Part shown: positions 1,020 through 22,644 of the stretch, in pieces
Position numbering within the stretch: the stretch's first letter is position 1
How the letters are laid out: the number at the start of each line of letters is the position of its first letter
Assembly (NCBI GenBank): GCA_017477855.1
Contig: JAFUUN010000062.1
Span: 1-40,708 of the forward strand
Reading direction: 5' to 3'
From: Rickettsiales bacterium
GTDB taxonomy: Bacteria > Pseudomonadota > Alphaproteobacteria > Rickettsiales > Deianiraeaceae
DNA length: 40,708 nt
Position numbers and translations under genes: made by a program
The notes under the pieces: generated by a model
What the model was told of the DNA's origin: nothing
Seen by the model: the letters and a program-made list of their open reading frames with translations, nothing else
The model's database searches: none

Positions 1020-2081
1020 TTAATGAACCGCCAACTTGCTACATTCGCTCGTTTCATTTTTCCATTTGTTGTAATTATTTAAGAAATCCTCCTGTGTTAT
1101 TAACGGTTTTTTAGCATACCATATACCATTGAAGTTAAATTTATAAGGCAACATTACATATAATAGGTCATCTATAACAAATGTTTGATTAAATATATGA
1201 TTTTGAACGAATTCAGTAATTTGTCTTGCGCCTTCATTTGATACAATGTATGCGGTTCCCATATGCGTTTTGAATACATTTGATATGAAATACTTATTGC
1301 TTCCGTATTTAAAAAAAGATTTTATGAAATCTCTTTTCTTAATCTTCAATCTATTTTTTACTCCATGTCCGAATTCCGAGAAGATATCAAGTTTAAGTAT
1401 ATTAAAATTCATTGGAGTTTGTGACAAATATTTGTCTAAATCATCATAAAAGCTATCTGGCTTCATTATTTCAAAATCATCTTCTAAAATCAACCCCATG
1501 GCATATCCTTTTTCCGCAATGTCTTTTATTGCCCTCAGATGTGAAAAAGTTGCTCCTATATGTCCTATTGTTATAAATGCTGTTCCTCCACTCGCACGTT
1601 GCCATTTTTGTCTTTCCGTCGGAAAAGCAACACTTGGTCTATATTTGATTACAAATTTTGGATCTTTAATATCATAAATATGATATAAATTATTCAATTC
1701 AAAATGTCGTTCTTTGTTGATAAATTGCTTTCCCGTCATCCTTTCGTTTTTAGTTTTATTTATGATAATTAAATCCTTTGTTGCATCGGTCGTTTTAAAT
1801 CTAATTTCATCAAAGCTTTTTCCAAGAAACTCATTACCAAAGGTCTTTTTCAATCTTTCCTCGTATTTGTTTCGTCTTTCAATGCTCCTATCCATGTTAA
1901 GTACATAAACATTTTCTATGGCAGATCTATTAAACCTGACCAATGTTTGTTTTTGGGTAATAAAAAAATAATACAATATCGGGAATATTAAAATCTGCAA
2001 CAACACAAATGCAAATAGTAGTAAAAAACGTTTCTTTTTGCTATCCATGCAAAAACCTATCTTTCTCTCTAAATAAGTCAT
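1020..2081 (-). CDS. Glycosyltransferase family 25 (LPS/LOS-type beta-glycosyltransferase) with an N-terminal transmembrane anchor
   Basis: VYVLNMDRSIERRNKYEERL matches the GT25 opening motif (I.VINL.RS.eR). GHIGATFSHLRAIKDIAEKGYAMGLILEDDFEI matches the GT25 (C)alSH...ilEDD block. The hydrophobic segment FLLLFAFVLLQILIFPILYYFFI follows KKKR. An alternative start is Met12 (coordinate 2048). Confidence 0.75.
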   Translation of the reverse strand: MTYLERKIGFCMDSKKKRFLLLFAFVLLQILIFPILYYFFITQKQTLVRFNRSAIENVYVLNMDRSIERRNKYEERLKKTFGNEFLGKSFDEIRFKTTDATKDLIIINKTKNERMTGKQFINKERHFELNNLYHIYDIKDPKFVIKYRPSVAFPTERQKWQRASGGTAFITIGHIGATFSHLRAIKDIAEKGYAMGLILEDDFEIMKPDSFYDDLDKYLSQTPMNFNILKLDIFSEFGHGVKNRLKIKKRDFIKSFFKYGSNKYFISNVFKTHMGTAYIVSNEGARQITEFVQNHIFNQTFVIDDLLYVMLPYKFNFNGIWYAKKPLITQEDFLNNYNKWKNETSECSKLAVH

Positions 2082-2090
2082 AAAATTAAA

Positions 2091-3176
2091 TCATTCTGCG
2101 AAATATCTTCCCATCTTCGTATCAACACTTTTTGGTTCTATTGCTTCATCGTTATCAATATTTATCTTAATCCAATCATCAGGATAAATATTTAATGATG
2201 TTTGCAATAACGTTTTATTAATCTTACCATCATCCTTATAAAACCTGTTCGGACAAACCACAATTTTGTTTGGATTTTTGTTTAGCATTCCTGCCCAAAT
2301 TGCAAATGTTGAGTTTGAAACAATATTGTGCTTTGCACTTGCTGACAAAATCAAGTTAAGATATGGCTTTTCCAGTGGGTTAATGTCAACATATGTATGT
2401 GGTTTATTTGGTTTGAAATATTTTTTTGCACCTTCTATGTCATCTGAAAAGATGTAATAATGCACATCTTTCATCTTGTCAAAAACTTTCATTGCCTTTT
2501 TGTAGTAGTCAAAGTTGCAGATATTATGTCTTTTGTATTGAAGGAAATCACCAAGTCGTATATTTATAACGACAGAATTTTTGCGTGATTGCATTTCTTT
2601 TATCATTGCAAGATTTTTATCATCCAATTCATCCTTGTATTTATCAGACAATGTTGTGAACATTTTTTGTATATCTTTTTCATAACCTTTGAAATATTCT
2701 GCATTTTCCAATACCTGTGTCATGTAAATCCCAATGTTTTTTCTAAAACAGTTTTCATCATAATCATATTGCTTTTCATTGCAATCTTTCCATTTCAATC
2801 TTAATAACTTGTTTTTTCTAATAAATCGTTTTTCTAAAAAGTTTGCATTCCATTTCTCTGCATTGACATCAAATTTATCAAAATACCATCTCACCCAAAC
2901 TCTATTTTTCTTATTGTTTTTAGCAAGTTTCACTTCCTTGTCAATAATATGAGTATCATACAAAACCTTCATGCCGGTTTTCTTTTCCAGAGCATAACCA
3001 AAGGCTACCTGATACAACTGATTTCCTGGGCCTCCCCACAATCTAATAATTCTTGTGTTTTTATATTTATTGTTTAGATATGCTGTATATGAAAAAAAAG
3101 CTGCAATCAATAAAACGAGTGCAACAACTGGAACATATATGTATATCTTCTTGTTGAATTTACCACAGCTCTTCAT
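2091..3176 (-). CDS. Glycosyltransferase family 11 (alpha-1,2-fucosyltransferase-like) with an N-terminal transmembrane anchor
   Basis: LWGGPGNQLYQVAFGYAL (GT11 GGLGNQmFQYAF motif), VVINIRLGDF (HIRRGDY motif) and IVSNSTFAIWAGML (SNSTfSWWAA motif). The N-terminal hydrophobic stretch is IYIYVPVVALVLLIAAFFSYTAYL. Confidence 0.8.
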   Translation of the reverse strand: MKSCGKFNKKIYIYVPVVALVLLIAAFFSYTAYLNNKYKNTRIIRLWGGPGNQLYQVAFGYALEKKTGMKVLYDTHIIDKEVKLAKNNKKNRVWVRWYFDKFDVNAEKWNANFLEKRFIRKNKLLRLKWKDCNEKQYDYDENCFRKNIGIYMTQVLENAEYFKGYEKDIQKMFTTLSDKYKDELDDKNLAMIKEMQSRKNSVVINIRLGDFLQYKRHNICNFDYYKKAMKVFDKMKDVHYYIFSDDIEGAKKYFKPNKPHTYVDINPLEKPYLNLILSASAKHNIVSNSTFAIWAGMLNKNPNKIVVCPNRFYKDDGKINKTLLQTSLNIYPDDWIKINIDNDEAIEPKSVDTKMGRYFAE

Positions 3177-3182
3177 GTATTA

Positions 3183-4202
3183 TTAGTCCTGAAACATCTT
3201 CACCAACTTCAACAACTCATCTGCATTTTTATAATCAACCTCCAATTTACCACTGCCATCTTGGTTGAGTTTGAGCTTCACATCAAATCCGCTGTTTTGT
3301 TTGAGGTAGTTCTCAATGGCCCGAAGGTTGTTGTCTATTGACTGGCGCTCTTCCCTTGTAAGCTGTTGTGTATCAGACCCACTATCTTCATCTTCCGTAT
3401 CATGTTCTTCGCTCTGTTTTTGAAGAGGACTATACATCTGCTTTATCATGTCAAATGTAATATTTGCTGGGTTTTGACCGTCATCTTCTTCATCCTCATC
3501 CTCTTCCTTACCACCATTCTCAATAAGCTTTTCCAGCTGACGAATTGACAATTGTTTTGTGATTATATCATCAAGATATTTTGAAGGATCATCTGTTCCA
3601 AGCAAAACTTTTGCGTGACCTAACGTAATATTTCCATTTTTGATTGCGATAATAACCTCACTTGGAAGATTTAGAATTCGCAACAAATTGGTAATATGAC
3701 TACGGCTTTTGCCTACTTCCTTAGCCAGTTGGTCGTGCGTGTAGCCAAAATCTTCAATGATATGCTTGTAGCCATTGGCCTCTTCAACAGGGTTTAGATC
3801 TTCTCTTTGTACGTTTTCAATAATTGCATTTTTCAGAATATCCTTCTCCGCAATGTCAATTATAACTGCCTTTATCTTTTCAAGACCAGCTAATTTTGTA
3901 GCACGATAGCGGCGCTCACCTGCTATAATAATATATTTTCCGCTGTTCTCATTTTGTCCTTTGGCAACGATGATGGGTTGCAGAAGACCACTGTGCTTGA
4001 TGGAGTTGCTAAGCTCGCGCAGTTTTGCATCATCAAATGTTTTACGTGGCTGATTTGGATTTGGAATGATATTTTCAATCAGCAATTCTTTCAGGCCAAA
4101 GCTACTGTCACCGTTTATAAATGTACTTTTGTTGTTATCCAATTCCTCATCATCAATGGCAAGCAAACTTGCTATACCTCGCCCGAGCTTTCTGTCAGTC
4201 AT
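3183..4202 (-). CDS. parB: Chromosome partitioning protein ParB
   Basis: RGIASLL N-terminus, IPNPNQPRK box, QPIIV...YIIIAGERRYRA ParB box, and HTH segment DQLAKEVGKSRSHITNLLRIL. An acidic low-complexity insert (EEDEDEEDD..DTEDEDSGSD) precedes the C-terminal dimerisation region. No parA lies upstream. Confidence 0.9.
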   Translation of the reverse strand: MTDRKLGRGIASLLAIDDEELDNNKSTFINGDSSFGLKELLIENIIPNPNQPRKTFDDAKLRELSNSIKHSGLLQPIIVAKGQNENSGKYIIIAGERRYRATKLAGLEKIKAVIIDIAEKDILKNAIIENVQREDLNPVEEANGYKHIIEDFGYTHDQLAKEVGKSRSHITNLLRILNLPSEVIIAIKNGNITLGHAKVLLGTDDPSKYLDDIITKQLSIRQLEKLIENGGKEEDEDEEDDGQNPANITFDMIKQMYSPLQKQSEEHDTEDEDSGSDTQQLTREERQSIDNNLRAIENYLKQNSGFDVKLKLNQDGSGKLEVDYKNADELLKLVKMFQD

Positions 4203-4252
4203 CTGCTGGTGGTTATAAGTAGGTTTGTAAAAATCAAGTTTTTATTATTTTT

Positions 4253-4338
4253 GCCGTTGCGCTGCCCGAGGCCACGCCCTCGCCGTTTGGCTGCGCCTCG
4301 TTCCTCGTCGGCCAAACGCGCTCCGCGCCGCGCAACAA
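4253..4338 (+). repeat. GC-rich palindromic intergenic element, short-core type
   Basis: (tt)gccGTTGCGCTGCCCGAGGCCACGCCCTCGCCGTTTGGCTGCGCCTCGTTCCTCGTCGGCCAAACGCGCTCCGCGCCGCGCAACAA. The termini are inverted repeats and there is an internal GTTTGGC/GCCAAAC stem. It lies between the parB start and tRNA-Lys. Confidence 0.9.
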
Positions 4339-4406
4339 TATTACTATTCCGCAAATTGGAAAATTCCCTTGCATTTTAAATTTTATCTTTTTCAGTCAAT
4401 ACTGTC

Positions 4407-4479
4407 GGGCATGTAGCTCAGCTGGTAGAGCAGTTGACTTTTAATCAATTGGTCGTGGGTTCGAATCCCACCGTGCCCA
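4407..4479 (+). tRNA. tRNA-Lys (anticodon UUU), 73 nt, CCA not encoded
   Basis: Manual cloverleaf: acceptor GGGCATG/CGTGCCC (one G-U pair), D arm GCTC-AGCTGGTA-GAGC, anticodon arm GTTGA-CTTTTAA-TCAAT (anticodon TTT at 4440-4442), variable loop TGGTC, T arm GTGGG-TTCGAAT-CCCAC, discriminator A. Confidence 0.9.
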
Positions 4480-4486
4480 CTTTGTT

Positions 4487-5923
4487 GTGTTTATGCCAGA
4501 GCTATCCAAAGAGAAAAGTGAAAACTGGAAAAACAAACTCTACATCGCAGACAATCTTGACGTTTTGAATGGATTAAATAGTGAAAGTGTTGATTTGGTT
4601 TATCTTGATCCGCCGTTTAACTCCAACAGGATTTATGGCAGCACAATGGAACGCAACAGCACGGTATTTAGTGATATTTGGAATTGGAGCGACATTGATG
4701 AATACAAGCTTGACATCATCGCAAATGACTTCCCAGAGCTGGCAGATTATATTGAAATTATTGACAGAATAAGTGATATTCACATGAAGTCATATATCGT
4801 TTATATGGCTCAAAGGGTTATTCAACTAAAACGAATTTTGAAAGATACAGGTTCAATCTACTATCACTGCGACCCAACAGCAGTGCACTTCGTCAAGTTG
4901 ATGTTGGATGGGATTTTTGGGAAAAATAATTTTAGGAATGAGATAAAATGGACTTACAATACCTATTTAGGCAAGGTTGACACGCTAAAATACTTTCCAC
5001 GCAAAACTGATTTGATATATTTTTATAGCAAGAATTACAAGGATTACTACTTTAACAAAGTGCCATTTGGTGAGAATTTTCAAGATACGGTTGACGGCAA
5101 ACGATGGAAGAAATATCTGACAGAAGATGGAACAATTCTTGAAGGACAACATCCAAAAACTGATATAAGATTTAAGGCATACAGAGATAAGTGGATAAGA
5201 GAGCATGGCAGGAAACCACAAAAAGGCGAAGCGATTTACTCTTGCAAAGGAACAATAATTACTGATTGCTGGACTGATTTGAAGGCAGTTGATCCAAAAT
5301 CAAAAGAGAATACAGGCCAACTAACCCAAAAACCCCTTGCCTTACTTGAAAGAATAATAGAAGCATCTTGTCCTGAAAATGGAGTTGTTCTTGACCCATT
5401 TTGTGGGTGCGCAACCACTTGCGTAGCAGCTCAAAGATTGAAGAGAAAGTGGATTGGGATTGACATCTGCGACCTTGCGATGGACTTGTTGACACACAGA
5501 TTGGAGCAGGATGGGTATTTTAAGGATAGAAAAGTTAAGGATCTTGACATGAAAATCAAGGAGCAGGGAGAGGATTTTGACATTTTGAACTGCATAGATA
5601 AAAAGTCAAAGAACTATTCTCCACTGCCACGCAGGACTGATGTTGAGGAGCAAAATTTGAACGAACCGAAGACAAAAAGGGCAATCAAAGAGGTTTTGTA
5701 TCAACAGCAGGAGCACAAGTGCAATGGCTGTGGAAGAGTGCTGGATATTGATTTGCTGGAAATAGACCATATTGTTCCAAAGTCGCATGGAGGTGGAGAT
5801 TATATGGAGAATTATCAGTTGCTGTGTGGGTCTTGTAATAAAATCAAGGGTGCCAAGCCAATGGAGTTCCTTCTGCAAAGAGTGGAGTTGATAAGAAGAG
5901 AGAGGAGAAAGAGGGAGTATTAG
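4487..5923 (+). CDS. Beta-class N6-adenine/N4-cytosine DNA methyltransferase fused to a C-terminal HNH endonuclease domain
   Basis: Motif IV SVDLVYLDPPFNS lies near the N-terminus. TQKPLALLERII plus motif I VVLDPFCGCATTCVAAQRLKRKWIGIDI follow later, which is the beta-class order (PF01555-type). The C-terminus HKCNGCGRVLDIDLLEIDHIVPKSHGGGDYMENYQLLCGSCNKIKG is a canonical CxxC..DH..N..CxxC HNH motif. The track start is GTG 4487; ATG 4493 is the alternative. Either lies only 8-14 nt after the tRNA 3' end. Confidence 0.85.
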   Translation: MFMPELSKEKSENWKNKLYIADNLDVLNGLNSESVDLVYLDPPFNSNRIYGSTMERNSTVFSDIWNWSDIDEYKLDIIANDFPELADYIEIIDRISDIHMKSYIVYMAQRVIQLKRILKDTGSIYYHCDPTAVHFVKLMLDGIFGKNNFRNEIKWTYNTYLGKVDTLKYFPRKTDLIYFYSKNYKDYYFNKVPFGENFQDTVDGKRWKKYLTEDGTILEGQHPKTDIRFKAYRDKWIREHGRKPQKGEAIYSCKGTIITDCWTDLKAVDPKSKENTGQLTQKPLALLERIIEASCPENGVVLDPFCGCATTCVAAQRLKRKWIGIDICDLAMDLLTHRLEQDGYFKDRKVKDLDMKIKEQGEDFDILNCIDKKSKNYSPLPRRTDVEEQNLNEPKTKRAIKEVLYQQQEHKCNGCGRVLDIDLLEIDHIVPKSHGGGDYMENYQLLCGSCNKIKGAKPMEFLLQRVELIRRERRKREY

Positions 5924-6010: not shown

Positions 6011-6688
6011 TCATCTCCTCTCCAACCTCCCTCCCTTAACCTCATACACATCATCAAAGCGGTCATTAAAGTCGTGGCTGTGAGAGACCATAAGGAGTGC
6101 AATATTGTTTTTCTTTACCAGTTCAAGCATTTCGTTCACAACAAACGCAGACATCTCGTTGTCAAGATTGCCAGTTGGCTCGTCTGCAAGGATGATGAGT
6201 GGCTTTTTGATAATCGCTCTGGCAATGGCAATGCGCTGGCGCTCGCCGCCGGACAGCTCGTTTGGCATGGCCTCAGCGCGGTGCGACATTTTCAGCATAT
6301 CCAGCATTTCCATGGCTCGGTTCTCGGCCTTCTTGCGGCTCACATTGCAAATCAGTTGCGGAATTATCAAGTTCTCCTTGGCCGTGAAGTCATTGAATAA
6401 GTAGTGAAACTGGTAGATAAAACCAATCTTTTTTCTCAACAGTTGATTGCGTTTGTCAGCCGACATTTTCGTAGCGTTTTGCTCGTCAATCCAAATTTCA
6501 CCACTTGTTGGCTCTTGAATTAGTCCTGCAATTTGCAAAAATGTGCTCTTTCCACAACCAGAATTTCCAAGCAACAGCGCGCTTTTTCCGCGCTCAATCT
6601 GCAAACTTGCATCAACCAACACGTCATGGCTTGTATCGCCGTCAATGTATTTTTTTGTGATATGTTTTGCTTCCAGAGCGAGAGGCAT
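6011..6688 (-). CDS. lolD: Lipoprotein-release ABC transporter ATP-binding protein LolD
   Basis: Walker A GNSGCGKST, the LolD-typical block IGFIYQFHYLFNDFTAKEN (E. coli LolD has LGFIYQFHHLLPDFTALEN), signature LSGGERQRIAIARA and Walker B ILADEPTGNLD. No lolC/lolE permease gene is adjacent in this window. Confidence 0.8.
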   Translation of the reverse strand: MPLALEAKHITKKYIDGDTSHDVLVDASLQIERGKSALLLGNSGCGKSTFLQIAGLIQEPTSGEIWIDEQNATKMSADKRNQLLRKKIGFIYQFHYLFNDFTAKENLIIPQLICNVSRKKAENRAMEMLDMLKMSHRAEAMPNELSGGERQRIAIARAIIKKPLIILADEPTGNLDNEMSAFVVNEMLELVKKNNIALLMVSHSHDFNDRFDDVYEVKGGRLERR

Positions 6689-6690
6689 AG

Positions 6691-7656
6691 CTATTTCTTC
6701 CTTTTTAGAAGCTCATTTTTTTTGTCAACCCATTTTTTCCATGCATCATCGTTTGGAAGCGCGGCATATTGATATTCCGGTCTCATTTTAATCTTTTTCC
6801 ATCTCATTCTTCTATTGAAAGAGTGATTTTTTGTATAAATTTCTTCTCTCCAATTTCCATATATTCTATCAAATACAGCTTCGGCATTATTTTTACATTT
6901 TAAAGTTAATGGACCAAATTGACATTGTCTAATTGGAAATATTTCCTCTTTTGTTTGCCAATAATCATAGAAATGACATCCGCATCCATTCGGATGTTCT
7001 AATTTGTGTTTTCCTCCGCATTGTAAATATCTATACCTATAATGAGGCTGACAGTTGTCTCCATCACAACATTTTTCCGTTACAAATATATCAATTACAA
7101 CACCTTTGTGAATTTGTAGTTTGATACGCTTATCAACAAGATATCTATCTTCAAGATTATGCTGTTTTATTTCCTTGTTTAGCACATTATAAACTTTATT
7201 CCTATCATAATATACCTCAACGTCCGCGTCATCATCCCAAGGTATAAATCCGCCATGACGAATAGCCCCAAGCTCCGTTCCGCTATCTATTGTATATGGA
7301 ATGTGATATTTTGTAAAAACATAATCCATAAATGCCAATAATTCATATGTTTCATTCACATATTTCTGCGGCATCAAATCGTTTTTTAAAATTTTACTTT
7401 GTGTATATAACTTAATCAACGGATTACACTCCAGAATAGCAAATATTTTTGTACTTCTGAATAAACAGGAGGTTTTTCTAAAACTCTTTACATCACTTGC
7501 ATGGTGATTTTCCCAGTCATTACGACAATTCTCACTTGTATAATAATTATAACACAAAATATAAGCCAAAATCCAAAAAGGGACAAAAACTAAAAACAGT
7601 ACAACAATTATGCTTCTAACCAAGAGTTTTACTCCTCTCTCTCTCTCTCTGCGCAT
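6691..7656 (-). CDS. LicD-family phosphotransferase (fukutin/FKRP-like), N-terminal TM anchor, paralog 1
   Basis: GTELGAIRHGGFIPWDDDADVEV matches the LicD GT.LGA.RH.GFIPWDDD.D motif. The N-terminal hydrophobic segment is IIVVLFLVFVPFWILAYILCY. There is a Cys-rich C-terminal half. The tail ALPNDDAWKKWVDKKNELLKRKK is shared with the downstream paralog. Confidence 0.75.
   Translation of the reverse strand: MRRERERGVKLLVRSIIVVLFLVFVPFWILAYILCYNYYTSENCRNDWENHHASDVKSFRKTSCLFRSTKIFAILECNPLIKLYTQSKILKNDLMPQKYVNETYELLAFMDYVFTKYHIPYTIDSGTELGAIRHGGFIPWDDDADVEVYYDRNKVYNVLNKEIKQHNLEDRYLVDKRIKLQIHKGVVIDIFVTEKCCDGDNCQPHYRYRYLQCGGKHKLEHPNGCGCHFYDYWQTKEEIFPIRQCQFGPLTLKCKNNAEAVFDRIYGNWREEIYTKNHSFNRRMRWKKIKMRPEYQYAALPNDDAWKKWVDKKNELLKRKK
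7635..7650 (-). repeat. (AG)8 dinucleotide tract, (CT)8 on the + strand, in codons 3-8 of the LicD paralog 1 gene
   Basis: Plus strand 7635-7650 is ctctctctctctctct. The coding strand reads ATG CGC AGA GAG AGA GAG AGA GGA (MRRERERG). Confidence 0.95.
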
Positions 7657-7724
7657 AAAAATACAAACTATTGATTATATGCTTTTTTATTTTTCAACAA
7701 TTTTTTTATATTTATTGTTGCGCT

Positions 7725-7812
7725 GCCCGAGGCCACGCCCTCGCCGTTTGCAATCTCCTCGTTCCGCTACGCTCCACTTCGTCCAGCAAACGCGCTCCGC
7801 GCCGCGCAACAA
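7725..7812 (+). repeat. GC-rich palindromic intergenic element, CAATCTCC-core type, followed by an extra right-arm fragment at 7819-7837
   Basis: TTGTTGCGCTGCCCGAGGCCACGCCCTCGCCGTTTGCAATCTCCTCGTTCCGCTACGCTCCACTTCGTCCAGCAAACGCGCTCCGCGCCGCGCAACAA. The following cagctccacgctggcgcaac resembles a second right arm. It lies between the two LicD paralogs. Confidence 0.9.
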
Positions 7813-7995
7813 AAGCCCAGCTCCACGCTGGCGCAACTTATCTTATTTTTCTGATTTTTAAATATAATAATGCCCGTCTTCCATTTTTGGTATCACGATA
7901 TTTAAAATACACATGTGCGATATATCCAATAATAAAAACATAGAACAATATTCTTTCTGCAACAAAAACCTTGCAGAATACTATAAATGCTTTTT

Positions 7996-8940
7996 CTATT
8001 TCTGCTTCAAATTATTTTTCAAATCAACCCATTTTTTCCATGCATCGTTAGTTGGCAGAGCTGGCTTGCGAAGTTCTGGTGTAAGCTTAATCTTTTTGTT
8101 TCTTCCATAATTGAAAGAGTGGTTTTCTGTGTAGGCAACTTCCATCCAATCTTTACCGTATGTGCGGTTAAATGCTTCAACCACATTATTTTTGCATACC
8201 AATTCCAATGGGCCAAACTTACATCTTTTGAGTGGATAAATCTCACTAAGATTGACATAATACAACTCTGGAAAAGTTGTTCCGCAGCCAATATATTTGA
8301 AATTGTAATTATAAACTTGCTTTTTGTAATACCTTTTGCATTTCACTAAATTAGGAAACAAGTCAACGGTCACGTTTTCCATTTCCAAAGTTGGTATAAG
8401 TTGTAAGCTGCCATCATCTTTATATCTGCTATAAATAATTCTATCCTCCACTTTATTCAACTTTATTTCCTTCTTAATAGCTGTCGCCATTTTGTCCTCA
8501 TCTTCCAAGACGACCAAGTCAACGTCATCATCCCATGGAATAAATCCGCCATGTCTGATACTCCCCATTTCGGTGCCCCAGTCAATAGCATATTTTATAT
8601 TGTGCTTTGTAAAAACGTAATCCAAAAATGCCAACGCTTCATATACATCGTTCACGGCCCGCTGATCTAGCTTGTCATAAGACATGATGCGGTTTTTTGT
8701 AAACATGTTAATGAGCTCGTGCTTATCCATTTTAAGCAACAACCGAAAATGCTTGTCATAACATGCATTTGCCTTATCTTTGTTGTCAACATGTAACTTT
8801 CCACACAAGTCAATAGAGAACAAAAAATACGCTATCAAATACAACAAGATCCATCCCGGAACAAGCACAACAAACGACAATACCATCGTAAATTTGCCAA
8901 TTCTTTTGCTAATTTTCTTAGCAAAACGCTTGCTTACCAT
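7996..8940 (-). CDS. LicD-family phosphotransferase, N-terminal TM anchor, paralog 2
   Basis: GTEMGSIRHGGFIPWDDDVDLVV (LicD motif), TM segment FTMVLSFVVLVPGWILLYLIAYFLF and C-terminal ALPTNDAWKKWVDLKNNLKQK. The 3' DNA (caacccattttttccatgcatc) is nearly identical to the paralog at 6691-7656. Confidence 0.75.
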   Translation of the reverse strand: MVSKRFAKKISKRIGKFTMVLSFVVLVPGWILLYLIAYFLFSIDLCGKLHVDNKDKANACYDKHFRLLLKMDKHELINMFTKNRIMSYDKLDQRAVNDVYEALAFLDYVFTKHNIKYAIDWGTEMGSIRHGGFIPWDDDVDLVVLEDEDKMATAIKKEIKLNKVEDRIIYSRYKDDGSLQLIPTLEMENVTVDLFPNLVKCKRYYKKQVYNYNFKYIGCGTTFPELYYVNLSEIYPLKRCKFGPLELVCKNNVVEAFNRTYGKDWMEVAYTENHSFNYGRNKKIKLTPELRKPALPTNDAWKKWVDLKNNLKQK

Positions 8941-19499: not shown

Positions 19500-20396
19500 T
19501 CAAGCTGGATTGTTAATCTCCACCACCTTTGCCTCTGGTGTGTAGACATAGTATTTCTTGCCAATTTGTCTTGCAAGTTTATACGCAAAATCCTTCATCA
19601 GGTCATCAACTTTGGCTTTGCTGGCTTCTTCCATCTTGACAAAAACAACGGGTCTGTCGCGGTCAATCAAGTTTTCAGCGCCATCCAAGGCCTCAAACTC
19701 CATGCCCGGCATGTTAACTTTTATCACATCAACATGTTGAAATATCTTCAAGTCATCAATTTTCTTGATTTTATAATCACCGTTTGTATCTTCAACGAGC
19801 TTGGTTTTGGCATAATTTTTCATCTTGAATTTTTCAATGCGTGCACGTGTATCCTTGTTTCCAATACCAAAATTGAGAGCAGCAACTTTTTTTAGACCAT
19901 TAATCTCAATATTTTTCTTCAAAATGTTGTATGGCATCTCCAAAGCTTCACATGCGTAGATAAATTTTGCTCTCTTTGGCGATTGCAGCATCCAATATAA
20001 GGTTTCATTTCCAATATTTGCACCAACATCTATAATTACCGCATTGTGTGGTAAAAATTCATCCAGTTCTTGTAACTTTTTTTGCTTGTAAAACTTGTTT
20101 TTATCAACGATCTTTGTCTGCATTTTTTCCACAGCATAATTAGGAACATAAAATTTGACGTTATCCTTGATAAAAATATCATCTTTCATTGACATCTTCA
20201 TAGCAAGCTGCTTGTGTTTTTCAATAACTTTTTCAGTTTTATCAAGCACTTTTTCTGTTTGTTTAAGAACCTTTTTCTGCTTGCTTTGAATTTGAACAAC
20301 TTTGATAGAACAAAAAATTGCAAAAATCAGTATCAATGTGCCAAAAATAACATGCATGGCCCATGATATGATGGTTTCTTTTTCTAAAAATAGCAT
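19500..20396 (-). CDS. FkbM-family SAM-dependent methyltransferase with an N-terminal TM anchor
   Basis: VIIDVGANIGNETLYW matches the Methyltransf_21/FkbM DVGAN.G motif. The N-terminal hydrophobic segment is WAMHVIFGTLILIFAIFCSIKVV, followed by a K-rich coiled stretch. Confidence 0.65.
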   Translation of the reverse strand: MLFLEKETIISWAMHVIFGTLILIFAIFCSIKVVQIQSKQKKVLKQTEKVLDKTEKVIEKHKQLAMKMSMKDDIFIKDNVKFYVPNYAVEKMQTKIVDKNKFYKQKKLQELDEFLPHNAVIIDVGANIGNETLYWMLQSPKRAKFIYACEALEMPYNILKKNIEINGLKKVAALNFGIGNKDTRARIEKFKMKNYAKTKLVEDTNGDYKIKKIDDLKIFQHVDVIKVNMPGMEFEALDGAENLIDRDRPVVFVKMEEASKAKVDDLMKDFAYKLARQIGKKYYVYTPEAKVVEINNPA

Positions 20397-20525: not shown

Positions 20526-21668
20526 ATGAACGAGCAAATTGGAATTGAAAATATTGGATTTTACACACCGAATGCCGCAATAAGTTTGGTTGAATTGGCG
20601 AAGCACACACGACAAAATCCTGATAAATTCACGAAGGGCTTGGGGCAGCTAAAAATGTCGGTTATCACGCCTAATCAGGATGTAATTTCCATGGCCGCAA
20701 ACGCCGCAAAACAGATATTGACAGAAGATATTATTGACAAAATTGACTTAGTTTTATTTGCTACCGAGAGTGCTGTTGATGCCTCCAAGTCGGCTGCGGT
20801 TGAGGTGCATAATTTGCTGAATTTGCATAAAAATTGCAGATGCCTGGAAGTCAAACATGCATGCTATGGCGGAACTGGCGCGGTATATTTGGCGCGTCAA
20901 CATGTGTGTCAAAATCCGCAAAGCAAGGCGCTTGTTTTGATGAGTGATATTGCTTTTTACGGTTTTAAAACCACTGGCGAGCCCACACAAGGATGTGGCG
21001 CGATGGCATTGATTATTTCTGCGGAGCCAAAAATATGCACTTTTGGCCCTGAAAATGTTTGTCTAACAAAGACATGCAACGACTTTTTTCGTCCATCTTT
21101 CAAGCAAACACCAATCTGGGACGGCCACATGTCAATCAGAGCGTATTTGTCAATGTATAATCAGGCGGCATGCGAGTGGGAAAAGAAATACGGCGCTATT
21201 CCAGAGGTTATGTGCTGTCATATGCCCTTTGCGCGCATGCTTGACAAGTGTGCTGTCATGCAGAAATATAGCAATGAAATAAAATCATATGCAAGCATAA
21301 TTGGAAACCTCTACACAGCATCACTGTATTTAGGTCTACTGTCACTATTAAATAACTGCAAAGATGACTTATCTGGCCGCATAATTGGTATGTTTTCATA
21401 TGGATCGGGATCGGAATGCGAACTATTTTCTGTCAAAATTTCAAATGGATATAAGGACATTTTGAATGCTAAAAAAGCCAGCATTGAGGCCATGATTGCT
21501 GATAGAATTACAGTTAATTATAGAATTTACAAAATGCTCTTGAAAAATTGGTTGAAGCGAGAGAAAAAGCTAAATTGGCATCTCGGGAGACAAAAACCAT
21601 CAATCTGCAATGTGAATGAGGATACAAAACTGATTTCTATAAAAAATGGAGCAAGATACTATAAATAG
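20526..21668 (+). CDS. mvaS: Hydroxymethylglutaryl-CoA synthase (bacterial MvaS type)
   Basis: It is collinear with my recollection of Enterococcus MvaS: IGIENIGFYTPN, DKFTKGLGQLKMSV, FATESAVDASKSAA (catalytic Glu), EVKHACYGGT (catalytic Cys), GEPTQGCGA, CCHMPF (catalytic His) and GNLYTASLYLGLLSLL..FSYGSG. Confidence 0.9.
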   Translation: MNEQIGIENIGFYTPNAAISLVELAKHTRQNPDKFTKGLGQLKMSVITPNQDVISMAANAAKQILTEDIIDKIDLVLFATESAVDASKSAAVEVHNLLNLHKNCRCLEVKHACYGGTGAVYLARQHVCQNPQSKALVLMSDIAFYGFKTTGEPTQGCGAMALIISAEPKICTFGPENVCLTKTCNDFFRPSFKQTPIWDGHMSIRAYLSMYNQAACEWEKKYGAIPEVMCCHMPFARMLDKCAVMQKYSNEIKSYASIIGNLYTASLYLGLLSLLNNCKDDLSGRIIGMFSYGSGSECELFSVKISNGYKDILNAKKASIEAMIADRITVNYRIYKMLLKNWLKREKKLNWHLGRQKPSICNVNEDTKLISIKNGARYYK

Positions 21669-22644
21669 CCTAACAAGCAAGTTGTTTAAACGAAATACAC
21701 ATATTGGCCAAGCTAAAGTACCGGCCAAGCTAATAATTAGTGGTGAGCACGCAGTTTTGTATAACTTGCGAGCCCTGACGTGTGCGATAAATATATGGAT
21801 GCACGTTGAAGTGAGAAAAACTTTTAGATACCGAGTTGTGATAGAACAAGATAAAAAAAAAAATATCGTCAATCTTGATGATAACTTTCCAGAAAATAAA
21901 ATGGATAATCCGCTGTGTGAGATTTATCGGCAGTTTGTGCTTTTTACTGAGTGTGATATTTACGGCATAAGAGTGAAAATAAAAACGGAAATCCCATCAC
22001 GATGTGGTCTTGGTTCAAGTGCTGCACTTGTTGTTGGAATGATAAAGGCGCTGGATAATCTCTTTCAAACTCATTTGTCGCAGCATAACATGACATTGTT
22101 GGCAAAGAACTGTGAGAATATTTTTCATGGCAAAAGCAGTGGAATAGACGTGCAAACGATTTTGAGAAAGGGAATTGTGAGTTTTGATAATGGTAAGGTC
22201 AGAAATTACAGGCAAAAGTTCAACAAAATTTGCGTAATTGACACTGGCAAGCCACAGTTTTCAACGAAGGAAGTGGTTGGGTTTGTGGCACAAAAATGTG
22301 CAAATGATAGTGCAATTTGGGGTGAGTTTTATGACATCGTTTCAAATGAAGAGACATTGATGTTGAAAGGCAAAAATATAAATTATCTCATAGACCAAAA
22401 TGAGCGCTTGCTTGAATATATTGGCGTTGTTTCCAAAAAAACAGCAGCATTTATAAAGATATTAAAAAAATATAACATTCATGCCAAAGTTTGTGGCGCT
22501 GGAACGATTGGCACACATGAGAAATTTGCCAACAATGGCGTAGTTGCTGTTTTTCACGAGCTGGATAAATATCAAAAACAAAAGCTCCAAAAGACATGCA
22601 GAATTTTTCAATTTAAATTAAAATTTGCTGAAATAGTTTATTGA
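21646..22644 (+). CDS. mvk: Mevalonate kinase (GHMP kinase)
   Basis: PAKLIISGEHAVLYN (N-terminal mevalonate kinase motif), GHMP motif IPSRCGLGSSAALVVGMIKAL and C-terminal AKVCGAGT. It overlaps mvaS by 23 nt. The coding region contains an A11 run at 21853-21863. Confidence 0.85.
   Translation: MEQDTINSLTSKLFKRNTHIGQAKVPAKLIISGEHAVLYNLRALTCAINIWMHVEVRKTFRYRVVIEQDKKKNIVNLDDNFPENKMDNPLCEIYRQFVLFTECDIYGIRVKIKTEIPSRCGLGSSAALVVGMIKALDNLFQTHLSQHNMTLLAKNCENIFHGKSSGIDVQTILRKGIVSFDNGKVRNYRQKFNKICVIDTGKPQFSTKEVVGFVAQKCANDSAIWGEFYDIVSNEETLMLKGKNINYLIDQNERLLEYIGVVSKKTAAFIKILKKYNIHAKVCGAGTIGTHEKFANNGVVAVFHELDKYQKQKLQKTCRIFQFKLKFAEIVY

Follow-up and report, generated by a model that had tools for sequence, protein, structure and literature searches.

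The 40,708-nucleotide (nt) contig JAFUUN010000062.1 of a Rickettsiales bacterium (assembly GCA_017477855.1), referred to here as the window, carries on its forward strand a gene (positions 4493 to 5923) that fuses a beta-class DNA amino-methyltransferase to an HNH nuclease domain at the C terminus and that begins directly behind a tRNA-Lys gene. On balance, and with a little better than even confidence, we interpret its product as a self-contained single-chain restriction-modification (R-M) enzyme, one that would follow the logic of Type IIC enzymes using different parts. A sequence-only reading of this DNA had listed an R-M or defense enzyme as one of several options, and that option is the one best supported by comparison with relatives: the catalytic residues are invariant, the recognition domain behaves as a cassette, alleles have been replaced, some copies are carried by transposons, and others form tandem arrays.

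Counted from the ATG at 4493, the protein has 476 amino acids (aa); an in-frame GTG at 4487 would extend it to 478. The 476-aa version is the form of the database copies, and the exact protein is present in public collections. That an N6A/N4C methyltransferase and a complete HNH motif share one polypeptide, as the sequence-only reading had it, was borne out by Pfam, in which PF01555 (N6_N4_Mtase) matched residues 35 to 328 (E value of 2.5e-40, 139.2 bits versus a cut-off of 26.7) and PF01844 (HNH) matched residues 412 to 456 (E value of 3.2e-12, 46.9 bits versus a cut-off of 21.4). PF14279 also matched the C-terminal part (35.3 bits, E value of 1e-8), and the HNH matches together span residues 412 to 460. 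The motif order and the HNH motif that had been noted were likewise found on direct reading: DPPF (nt 4607 to 4618, aa 39 to 42) precedes DPFCGCATT (nt 5393 to 5419, aa 301 to 309), which is the order of the beta class, and the HNH signature (CNGC, DH, N, and CGSC-N) is complete at nt 5720 to 5839. The permuted beta-class order is itself complete, running from motif IV through a variable region (residues 152 to 272) to the S-adenosylmethionine (AdoMet) motif I, which takes a variant form in which the second Gly is replaced by Ala, invariantly across the fusion family. The protein can be divided into an N-terminal methyltransferase lobe containing motif IV (aa 1 to 151, nt 4493 to 4945; assigned from Pfam); a hypervariable target-recognition domain (aa 152 to 272, nt 4946 to 5308; delimited by the contrast in identity with the relative P0003 and by pair comparison); an AdoMet-binding lobe that holds TQKP (motif X) and motif I (aa 273 to 340, nt 5309 to 5512; assigned from Pfam and Protein Data Bank [PDB] alignments); a charged linker whose length and sequence differ across the alignment (aa 341 to 394, nt 5513 to 5674); and the HNH (beta-beta-alpha-Me) domain (aa 395 to 476, nt 5675 to 5920), with its first CxxC at nt 5720 to 5731, D425-H426 at nt 5765 to 5770, N440, and the second CxxC with N449 at nt 5825 to 5839.

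An AlphaFold2 model built with 108 homologues had a mean predicted local distance difference test score (pLDDT) of 81 and a predicted template modeling score of 0.80, and confidence was low only in the linker (pLDDT below 50 at residues 343 to 358) and in parts of the recognition region (residues 194 to 206 and 218 to 221). Foldseek searches with this model returned only beta-class DNA methyltransferases and no solved structure with the complete methyltransferase-HNH architecture. The best PDB matches were M.BceJIV, M.RsrI, CcrM, and M.MboIIA, with a probability of 1.00 and target-normalized template modeling scores of 0.7 to 0.8 for M.BceJIV, M.RsrI, and M.MboIIA. Sequence matches in the PDB told a similar story for the methyltransferase part (M.BceJIV, CcrM, EcoP15I Mod, and M.MboIIA), and the HNH part (residues ~385 to 470) matched Cas9, IscB-like proteins, and a group II intron maturase. 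In NCBIfam, the methyltransferase part matched the YhdJ and CcrM models, both below their cut-offs (67.9 bits versus a cut-off of 830 for CcrM), and the best models for the HNH part were Cas9d and IscB. Since motif IV carries Asp and since enzymes that form N6-methyladenine (m6A) dominate the matches, the modified base is probably m6A.

The sequence-only reading had called the arrangement less characterized; the fusion is not rare and forms a large family spanning many phyla. All 120 best matches in a collection of 5.8 billion proteins carry both domains, at 41 to 96% identity, and they include proteins of “Ca. Deianiraea vastatrix,” Planctomycetaceae, and Ignavibacteria. When one genome was scanned for each GTDB species, at least 589 loci with the fusion were located, several genomes having two copies, and the matches listed span Chloroflexota, Poribacteria, Acidobacteriota, Alpha- and Gammaproteobacteria, Bacteroidota, Cyanobacteria, and a Nitrosopumilus archaeon. 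When the C-terminal half (from motif X to HNH) served as the query of an exhaustive HMMER search, the matches with E values of 1e-30 or lower fell into 160 clusters at 50% identity. Many of the lineages bear names typical of sponge symbionts, and the gene appears to be especially common in sponge-symbiont and Rickettsiales genomes. A protein of 1,598 aa (P0151), which at its C-terminus matches the family's motif X/I-HNH half, is possibly a giant relative with multiple domains.

Residue conservation was judged in alignments of 25 and 108 homologues, the 108 being at 41 to 83% identity. In all 108 sequences, the methyltransferase residues D39, P40, P41, F42, T278, Q279, K280, P281, D301, P302, F303, G305, C306, A307, and T308 and the HNH residues C410, C413, D425, H426, N440, C445, C448, and N449 are invariant. 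Because the catalytic residues and both zinc CxxC pairs never vary, both activities appear to be under purifying selection, and the invariance of the HNH catalytic residues argues for an active nuclease.

The recognition domain follows a different course from the rest of the protein. The window protein and P0003 are 97% identical over residues 1 to 150 and about 98% identical over residues 273 to 476 but only about 25% identical over residues 152 to 272. Among the 108 sequences, 213 pairs are at least 85% identical in the backbone and less than 35% identical in the recognition domain, 17 pairs show the reverse (backbone below 60%, recognition domain at least 50%), and the two identities are correlated with an r of 0.29. 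A third type of recognition domain on the same backbone is found at locus L095, and loci L021 and L078, from Poriferihabitaceae and Halioglobus genomes, are 96 to 98% identical in DNA save for the recognition domain. On either side, the cassette is bordered by an invariant stretch (FGKxNFRNEI and SKExTGxxTQKP), and these two could act as anchors for recombination. Combined R-M enzymes, in which one specificity module serves both restriction and modification, show the same module-exchange behavior (Pingoud et al. 2014, PMC4081073). Regulatory orphan methylases would not be expected to undergo such exchange.

Whole alleles also appear to have been replaced. The sequence-only reading had proposed a comparison of the parB-tRNA-lolD region among relatives, and the syntenic locus L005 aligns with the window over 13.9 kb at 92 to 100% identity per 200-nt bin, except in the fusion gene itself, which is only 64 to 81% identical. 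The closest allele, P0001, is 96% identical but not syntenic, lying between the genes for an 836-aa protein of no assigned function and a biotin carboxylase, whereas the syntenic allele is only 73% identical. On distant contigs of Rickettsiales type, the gene is found between rpmE and psd, beside tRNA-Val(-) and tuf, beside feoB (Deianiraea), upstream of rpmH, and as a tandem pair. We clustered all genes within 4 kb on either side of 80 distant loci and found no recurrent partner gene (Res, specificity subunit, or helicase). The commonest neighbor was an IS1595-family transposase (PF12762 plus PF12760), seen at ~10 of the 80 loci, nine times immediately upstream and in the same orientation; neighbor clusters of Uma2, SDR, ABC, and sulfatase proteins, at four to seven loci each, look incidental. 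At L026, 38-nt inverted repeats enclose the transposase and the fusion gene, and the unit common to L021 and L078 begins at an inverted repeat. The IS1595-family elements that carry the fusion gene as a passenger occupy positions 4942 to 7422 of L026, 5007 to 7641 of L078, and 5007 to 8837 of L021 (inverted repeats GGGGAATTATAT...), the last with an additional insertion of ~1.2 kb close to its right end. Tandem arrays of two to five paralogues occur at L010, L087, and L178, the largest being those of Flammeovirgaceae metagenome-assembled genomes with four to five methyltransferase-nuclease paralogues (L087, 256 to 7086; L010, 4481 to 10353). Some of these paralogues have T5orf172 in place of HNH, including at least one copy in L087 (1657 to 2937) with T5orf172/MUG113. 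We take T5orf172 to belong with the GIY-YIG nucleases, and these copies look like nuclease-domain swapping on one methyltransferase scaffold.

Among the phage and plasmid relatives listed, the methyltransferase usually comes without the nuclease. GenBank phage matches were methyltransferase only, and none was full length. Of the best plasmid matches listed for PLSDB, 0 of 15 reach the HNH domain; two PLSDB records cover at least 80% of the query, and the one among those listed stops before the HNH motif. Three of the 80 best IMG/VR matches were full length with HNH. A phage or plasmid origin of the fusion was rejected on these grounds. The distribution would fit phage anti-restriction methylases on one side and a cellular, nuclease-armed version on the other.

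From these features, we hypothesize the following mode of action. A beta-class amino-methyltransferase, probably an m6A enzyme, would read a specific DNA site by means of its internal, exchangeable recognition domain (aa 152 to 272), and a Cas9/IscB-like HNH domain would be tethered to it by a flexible linker of ~55 aa. One recognition module would then direct both outcomes: host sites, including those hemimethylated after replication, would be methylated, and HNH would cut near fully unmethylated, foreign sites. Double-strand cutting would probably require a dimer, as formed by other beta-class methyltransferases, in which two HNH domains act jointly. The family is mobile and under diversifying pressure, with cassette swaps between nearly identical alleles and replacement of whole alleles within conserved flanks, and some of its members travel inside IS1595-family transposons or form tandem arrays.

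Several observations weigh against an R-M enzyme. A fused enzyme must spare newly replicated or unmethylated host sites, and we see no element that would exert such control. HNH domains of the Cas9/IscB type cleave a single strand, which makes a cut through both strands dependent on the assumed dimer. The gene is retained in reduced genomes of obligate symbionts, where phage pressure may be low, and in the window it sits among housekeeping genes, not in a defense island. PADLOC flags the methyltransferase part alone, as a generic Type II/III methyltransferase. Finally, a literature search, whose scope did not extend to REBASE and subscription journals, returned no biochemical or methylome data for any family member. 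The same search returned no paper on the fusion family or on IS1595 elements carrying such a gene. The components are familiar, and databases already list proteins of this architecture under generic labels (“HNH endonuclease,” “DNA methyltransferase”); the fusion is not categorically new but, as a probable R-M architecture, is an uncharacterized variant.

The junction with the tRNA gene bears both on expression and on the alternatives to an R-M function. The tRNA-Lys gene (anticodon UUU, no encoded CCA) lies at 4407 to 4480 on the forward strand according to ARAGORN (Rfam RF00005 at 4407 to 4479, 78.2 bits). It is followed by a 12-nt spacer, CTTTGTTGTGTT(T), at 4481 to 4492, which was both read directly and scanned. 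The sequence-only reading had put the start of the gene 8 to 14 nt behind the tRNA; the adjacency holds, and the distance is corrected to a gap of 6 to 7 nt (GTG start) or 12 to 13 nt (ATG start). Its view that there is no room for a separate promoter or an obvious Shine-Dalgarno sequence agrees with our scans, which called no sigma-70-like promoter and no terminator between the tRNA and the open reading frame (ORF); the spacer, CTTTGTTGTGTTT, has no purine-rich Shine-Dalgarno sequence. Upstream of the tRNA, a conserved AT-rich block at 4360 to 4406 (TTGCAT at 4369) is its presumed promoter. A strict sigma-70 scan called none there, so this assignment is based on conservation alone: the block is 96% identical to locus L096 from 4360 on and 93% identical to L001 from 4368 on, in three genomic contexts. 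Given a 12-nt gap with no promoter, Shine-Dalgarno sequence, or terminator of its own, it is a sound inference that the fusion gene is cotranscribed with tRNA-Lys by read-through from the tRNA promoter, and the retention of the same junction in two genomic contexts speaks for this. The mRNA would be freed by tRNA 3' processing and would have a 5' leader of at most 12 nt, making it almost leaderless and devoid of a Shine-Dalgarno sequence.

The tRNA-Lys sequence is identical in the window, L001 to L007, L088, L095, and L096, and an exact-match scan of Joint Genome Institute (JGI) metagenomes with the whole sequence found only two contigs. The fusion gene begins 12 nt past this tRNA both in the parB/lolD context (window and L005) and in the PCC context (L001, L088, and L095). 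The window and L001, whose contexts differ, share a block of 93% identity that opens at 4368, 39 nt ahead of the tRNA, and closes at 5922, exactly one base short of the stop codon's end. L096, from a relative whose mlaE is ~84% identical to that of L005, carries this promoter block and the identical tRNA-Lys between other genes but lacks a methyltransferase-HNH gene, and it ceases to be homologous to the window at 4484, 4 nt beyond the tRNA. This supports in part the suggestion that the tRNA serves as an integration site. Of the 80 distant loci, L023 is the only one near a true tRNA, which lies 124 nt upstream and has its own T-run; the linkage is confined to close relatives of the window and is not a property of the family. 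A tRNA-Ser(GCU) that ARAGORN called at L062 (5932 to 6008) lies within a coding repeat (KPGPKPGPKPG) where the upstream ORF ends and is likely a false positive. Because L023 alone among these 80 loci has a true tRNA and because the same tRNA-Lys occurs without the gene, we rejected a family-wide functional link between tRNA and enzyme, including RNA guidance through the Cas9/IscB-like HNH domain.

The tRNA gene itself seems to move. A module of 117 to 125 nt comprising promoter and tRNA-Lys is found at 316 to 440 in L096 (Ga0310694_10597108), 4360 to 4484 in the window, 2881 to 2997 in L001, and 7868 to 7992 in L005, and thus at three chromosomal sites in related lineages: on the mlaE side, between parB and lolD, and at PCC. 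Since it occupies three positions in related lineages, an essential tRNA gene evidently changes its place as a very small unit. In the window, the module is preceded at a distance of about 20 nt by a copy (4240 to 4340; hairpin of -36.9 kcal/mol) of a GC-rich imperfect palindromic repeat, the palindromic element that the sequence-only reading had placed near the gene and that proved real. At least nine copies of this repeat, all intergenic, occur in 40 kb of an AT-rich genome (4240 to 4340, 7701 to 7814, 14221 to 14312, 16274 to 16382, 17416 to 17521, 27115 to 27209, 28771 to 28908, 35624 to 35711, and 40596 to 40708), eight of which were aligned. The repeat is ~90 to 130 nt long with the core GTTGCGCYGCCCGAGGCCACGCCCTCGCCGTTTGG...CCAAACGCGCTCCGCGCCGCGCAAC, is present in relatives L001, L005, L088, and L096, and flanks the tRNA-Lys module on both sides in L096. 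It resembles elements of the repetitive extragenic palindromic (REP), Rickettsia palindromic element (RPE), or miniature inverted-repeat transposable element (MITE) type. The module has plausibly relocated between lineages by way of these repeats. Translation of the repeat yields spurious ORFs, e.g., at 3954 to 4379.

A selfish, self-mobilizing element is one way to read this junction. According to this explanation, HNH would nick or cut a target, e.g., by tRNA genes or in gene-less alleles, and provoke recombinational repair that copies the gene or its cassette into new loci by homing or gene conversion; the methyltransferase would guard the carrier, and defense would be secondary or absent. 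The presence/absence polymorphism falls exactly at the 3' end of tRNA-Lys, as L096 illustrates; the block of tRNA plus gene occurs in two contexts, with the 96% allele nonsyntenic and the syntenic one at 73%; the locus is a recombination hot spot; the HNH domain is nearest to those of group II introns and IscB; and the gene is always solitary and at times lies inside an IS1595-family element. However, the family has no common insertion site (parB/lolD, PCC, rpmE/psd, tuf, feoB, and rpmH all occur), only 1 of 80 distant loci is near a real tRNA, and homing endonucleases need neither a catalytically conserved methyltransferase nor a diversifying recognition domain. Moreover, the tRNA-Lys module moves between contexts without the gene, flanked by palindromic repeats, and because it moves alone between repeats, repeat-mediated rearrangement can explain the shared block of tRNA plus gene. 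We consider a selfish element unlikely. A compromise, to which we give less credence still, is a “homing R-M” gene, in which an HNH nick or cut beside the enzyme's own recognition sites would lead through repair to cassette exchange, allele replacement within conserved flanks, and insertion of the single gene at promoter-proximal sites, the 3' end of tRNA-Lys being one. If true, it would explain why a lone gene that brings no integrase is found 4 to 12 nt past a tRNA in only some genomes.

The gene could, alternatively, encode an orphan DNA methyltransferase for host regulation or replication control, with HNH as an accessory module for binding DNA or zinc or as a weak nickase of the repair type; the nickase variant can be likened to a fused Dam/MutH-like device for strand discrimination. 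To our knowledge, Rickettsiales lack CcrM, which would suit such a role. The gene sits among core genes (parB, fusA, rpsA, and dnaX) behind the promoter of an essential tRNA, is kept in several reduced Rickettsiales genomes, including the complete one of Deianiraea vastatrix, has no restriction partner gene, and counts the regulatory methylases CcrM and M.BceJIV among the nearest structural relatives of its product. Regulatory methylases hold one specificity, however, whereas alleles of this gene with 97 to 99% identity elsewhere differ by a swapped recognition domain; a relative (L096) lacks the gene behind this tRNA; carriage by transposons and tandem arrays that include other nuclease domains are difficult to reconcile with such a role; and all HNH catalytic residues are invariant. 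The sequence-only reading had allowed that relatives might carry the fusion as a conserved orphan methylase. Relatives do carry the fusion, but their recognition domains are not conserved, and we regard an orphan role as improbable. Most improbable of all would be a modification subunit of a multigene Type III or other defense system with partners elsewhere. PADLOC models of Type III methyltransferases and the EcoP15I and Mbo45V Mod structures do match the methyltransferase part, but neither the window nor the flanks of the 80 loci hold a Res-like helicase-nuclease or another recurrent partner, and a nuclease is already fused to the methyltransferase.

The surroundings of the gene in the window are those of a core-gene region of a reduced genome (fusA, rpsA, dnaX, thrS, tyrS, dnaK, efp, and rplI). 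As the sequence-only reading had stated, the gene lies between parB (3183 to 4202, reverse strand), which is upstream of tRNA-Lys, and a lolD-like ABC ATPase gene (6011 to 6688, reverse strand), and no restriction, specificity, or helicase gene adjoins it. No annotated ORF of the window matches a transposase model, so this copy is not inside an IS1595-family transposon. Glycan-related genes also surround the locus (1020 to 3176, 6691 to 8940, and 19500 to 20396), encoding GT25, GT11 (fucosyltransferase-like), two LicD paralogues, and an FkbM-type methyltransferase, and several of them are at ~30% GC, markedly below the adjacent core genes. Farther along, a gene for HMG-CoA synthase (20526 to 21668) lies beside one for a GHMP mevalonate-type kinase (21646 to 22644), and a polyprenyl synthetase gene is found at 34649 to 35602, which suggests a mevalonate isoprenoid pathway in this Rickettsiales-like genome. 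The ORF at 37656 to 38672 (reverse strand) gave a weak, above-threshold match to YopJ-family Ser/Thr acetyltransferases (PF03421, 30.5 bits) and could encode a secreted effector.

If the enzyme restricts DNA, it would represent a compact class of single-chain R-M proteins (~420 to 480 aa) built from a beta-class methyltransferase and HNH, in which natural cassette exchange reprograms specificity. A widespread and currently unannotated defense gene would then be added to genome surveys, and a small, sequence-programmable methylase-nickase scaffold could serve as a tool. If the nuclease is inactive, the finding shrinks to an oddly decorated orphan methylase. The tRNA-Lys junction, for its part, would be an unusual mode of expression, a neat natural example in which an accessory gene owes its expression solely to read-through of an essential tRNA gene.

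The closest parallel in logic is offered by Type IIC/IIG enzymes such as MmeI, BpuSI, Eco57I, and BtgZI. They likewise join nuclease and methyltransferase in one chain, with one recognition module presumably serving both; they diversify in specificity by module exchange on a conserved catalytic framework (PMC4081073) and can act without a separate methylase. Their canonical build comprises a PD-(D/E)XK nuclease at the N terminus, a methyltransferase of the gamma class (NPPY/F/W), and a specificity module that is either C-terminal or separate (PMC4081073). The fusion has, in contrast, a beta-class PF01555 methyltransferase (DPPF), an internal recognition domain, and a C-terminal zinc-binding HNH; it is also much smaller (476 aa). 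Because it departs from the canonical build, it does not belong to the MmeI/BpuSI lineage and can at most be called an analogue. BtgZI comes closest in layout, with its methyltransferase likewise N-terminal and its nuclease C-terminal, but its methyltransferase is of the alpha class.

In fold and motif order, the counterparts are the solitary beta-class methyltransferases M.BceJIV, M.RsrI, CcrM, M.MboIIA, and YhdJ, which gave the best Foldseek and profile matches to residues 1 to 340. They have no nuclease domain and share only ~20% identity with the fusion, whose family has the distinctive invariant motif I form DPFCGCATTC. CcrM and M.BceJIV, moreover, keep a fixed specificity and a regulatory role; with its swapped recognition domain and its absence from L096, the fusion falls outside the CcrM-like orphan class. 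The closest relatives of the methyltransferase part alone (35 to 41% identity over residues ~5 to 340) are orphan enzymes of phages and plasmids (phrog_67, Streptomyces and Mycobacterium phage methylases, and a Megaera plasmid “Mod”). These end after the methyltransferase, without HNH, and presumably act in anti-restriction or self-protection. The HNH part shares the catalytic signature CxxC...DH...N...CxxC-N with Cas9, IscB, and group II intron proteins, its best named matches over residues ~385 to 470. In those proteins, HNH is positioned by a guide RNA or an intron ribonucleoprotein, whereas in the fusion it is joined to a methyltransferase with sequence specificity; we see no sign of RNA guidance here, the adjoining tRNA being ordinary and also found without the gene.

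For the tRNA junction, the apt comparison is the thrU-tyrU-glyT-thrT-tufB operon of Escherichia coli, which yields a tRNA-mRNA cotranscript. In both, a coding gene lies directly 3' of a tRNA gene with no promoter or terminator between them. They differ in that the gene downstream of tRNA-Lys is accessory and variable, not a housekeeping gene, and in that the gap is only 12 nt, so that the mRNA left after processing would be almost leaderless.

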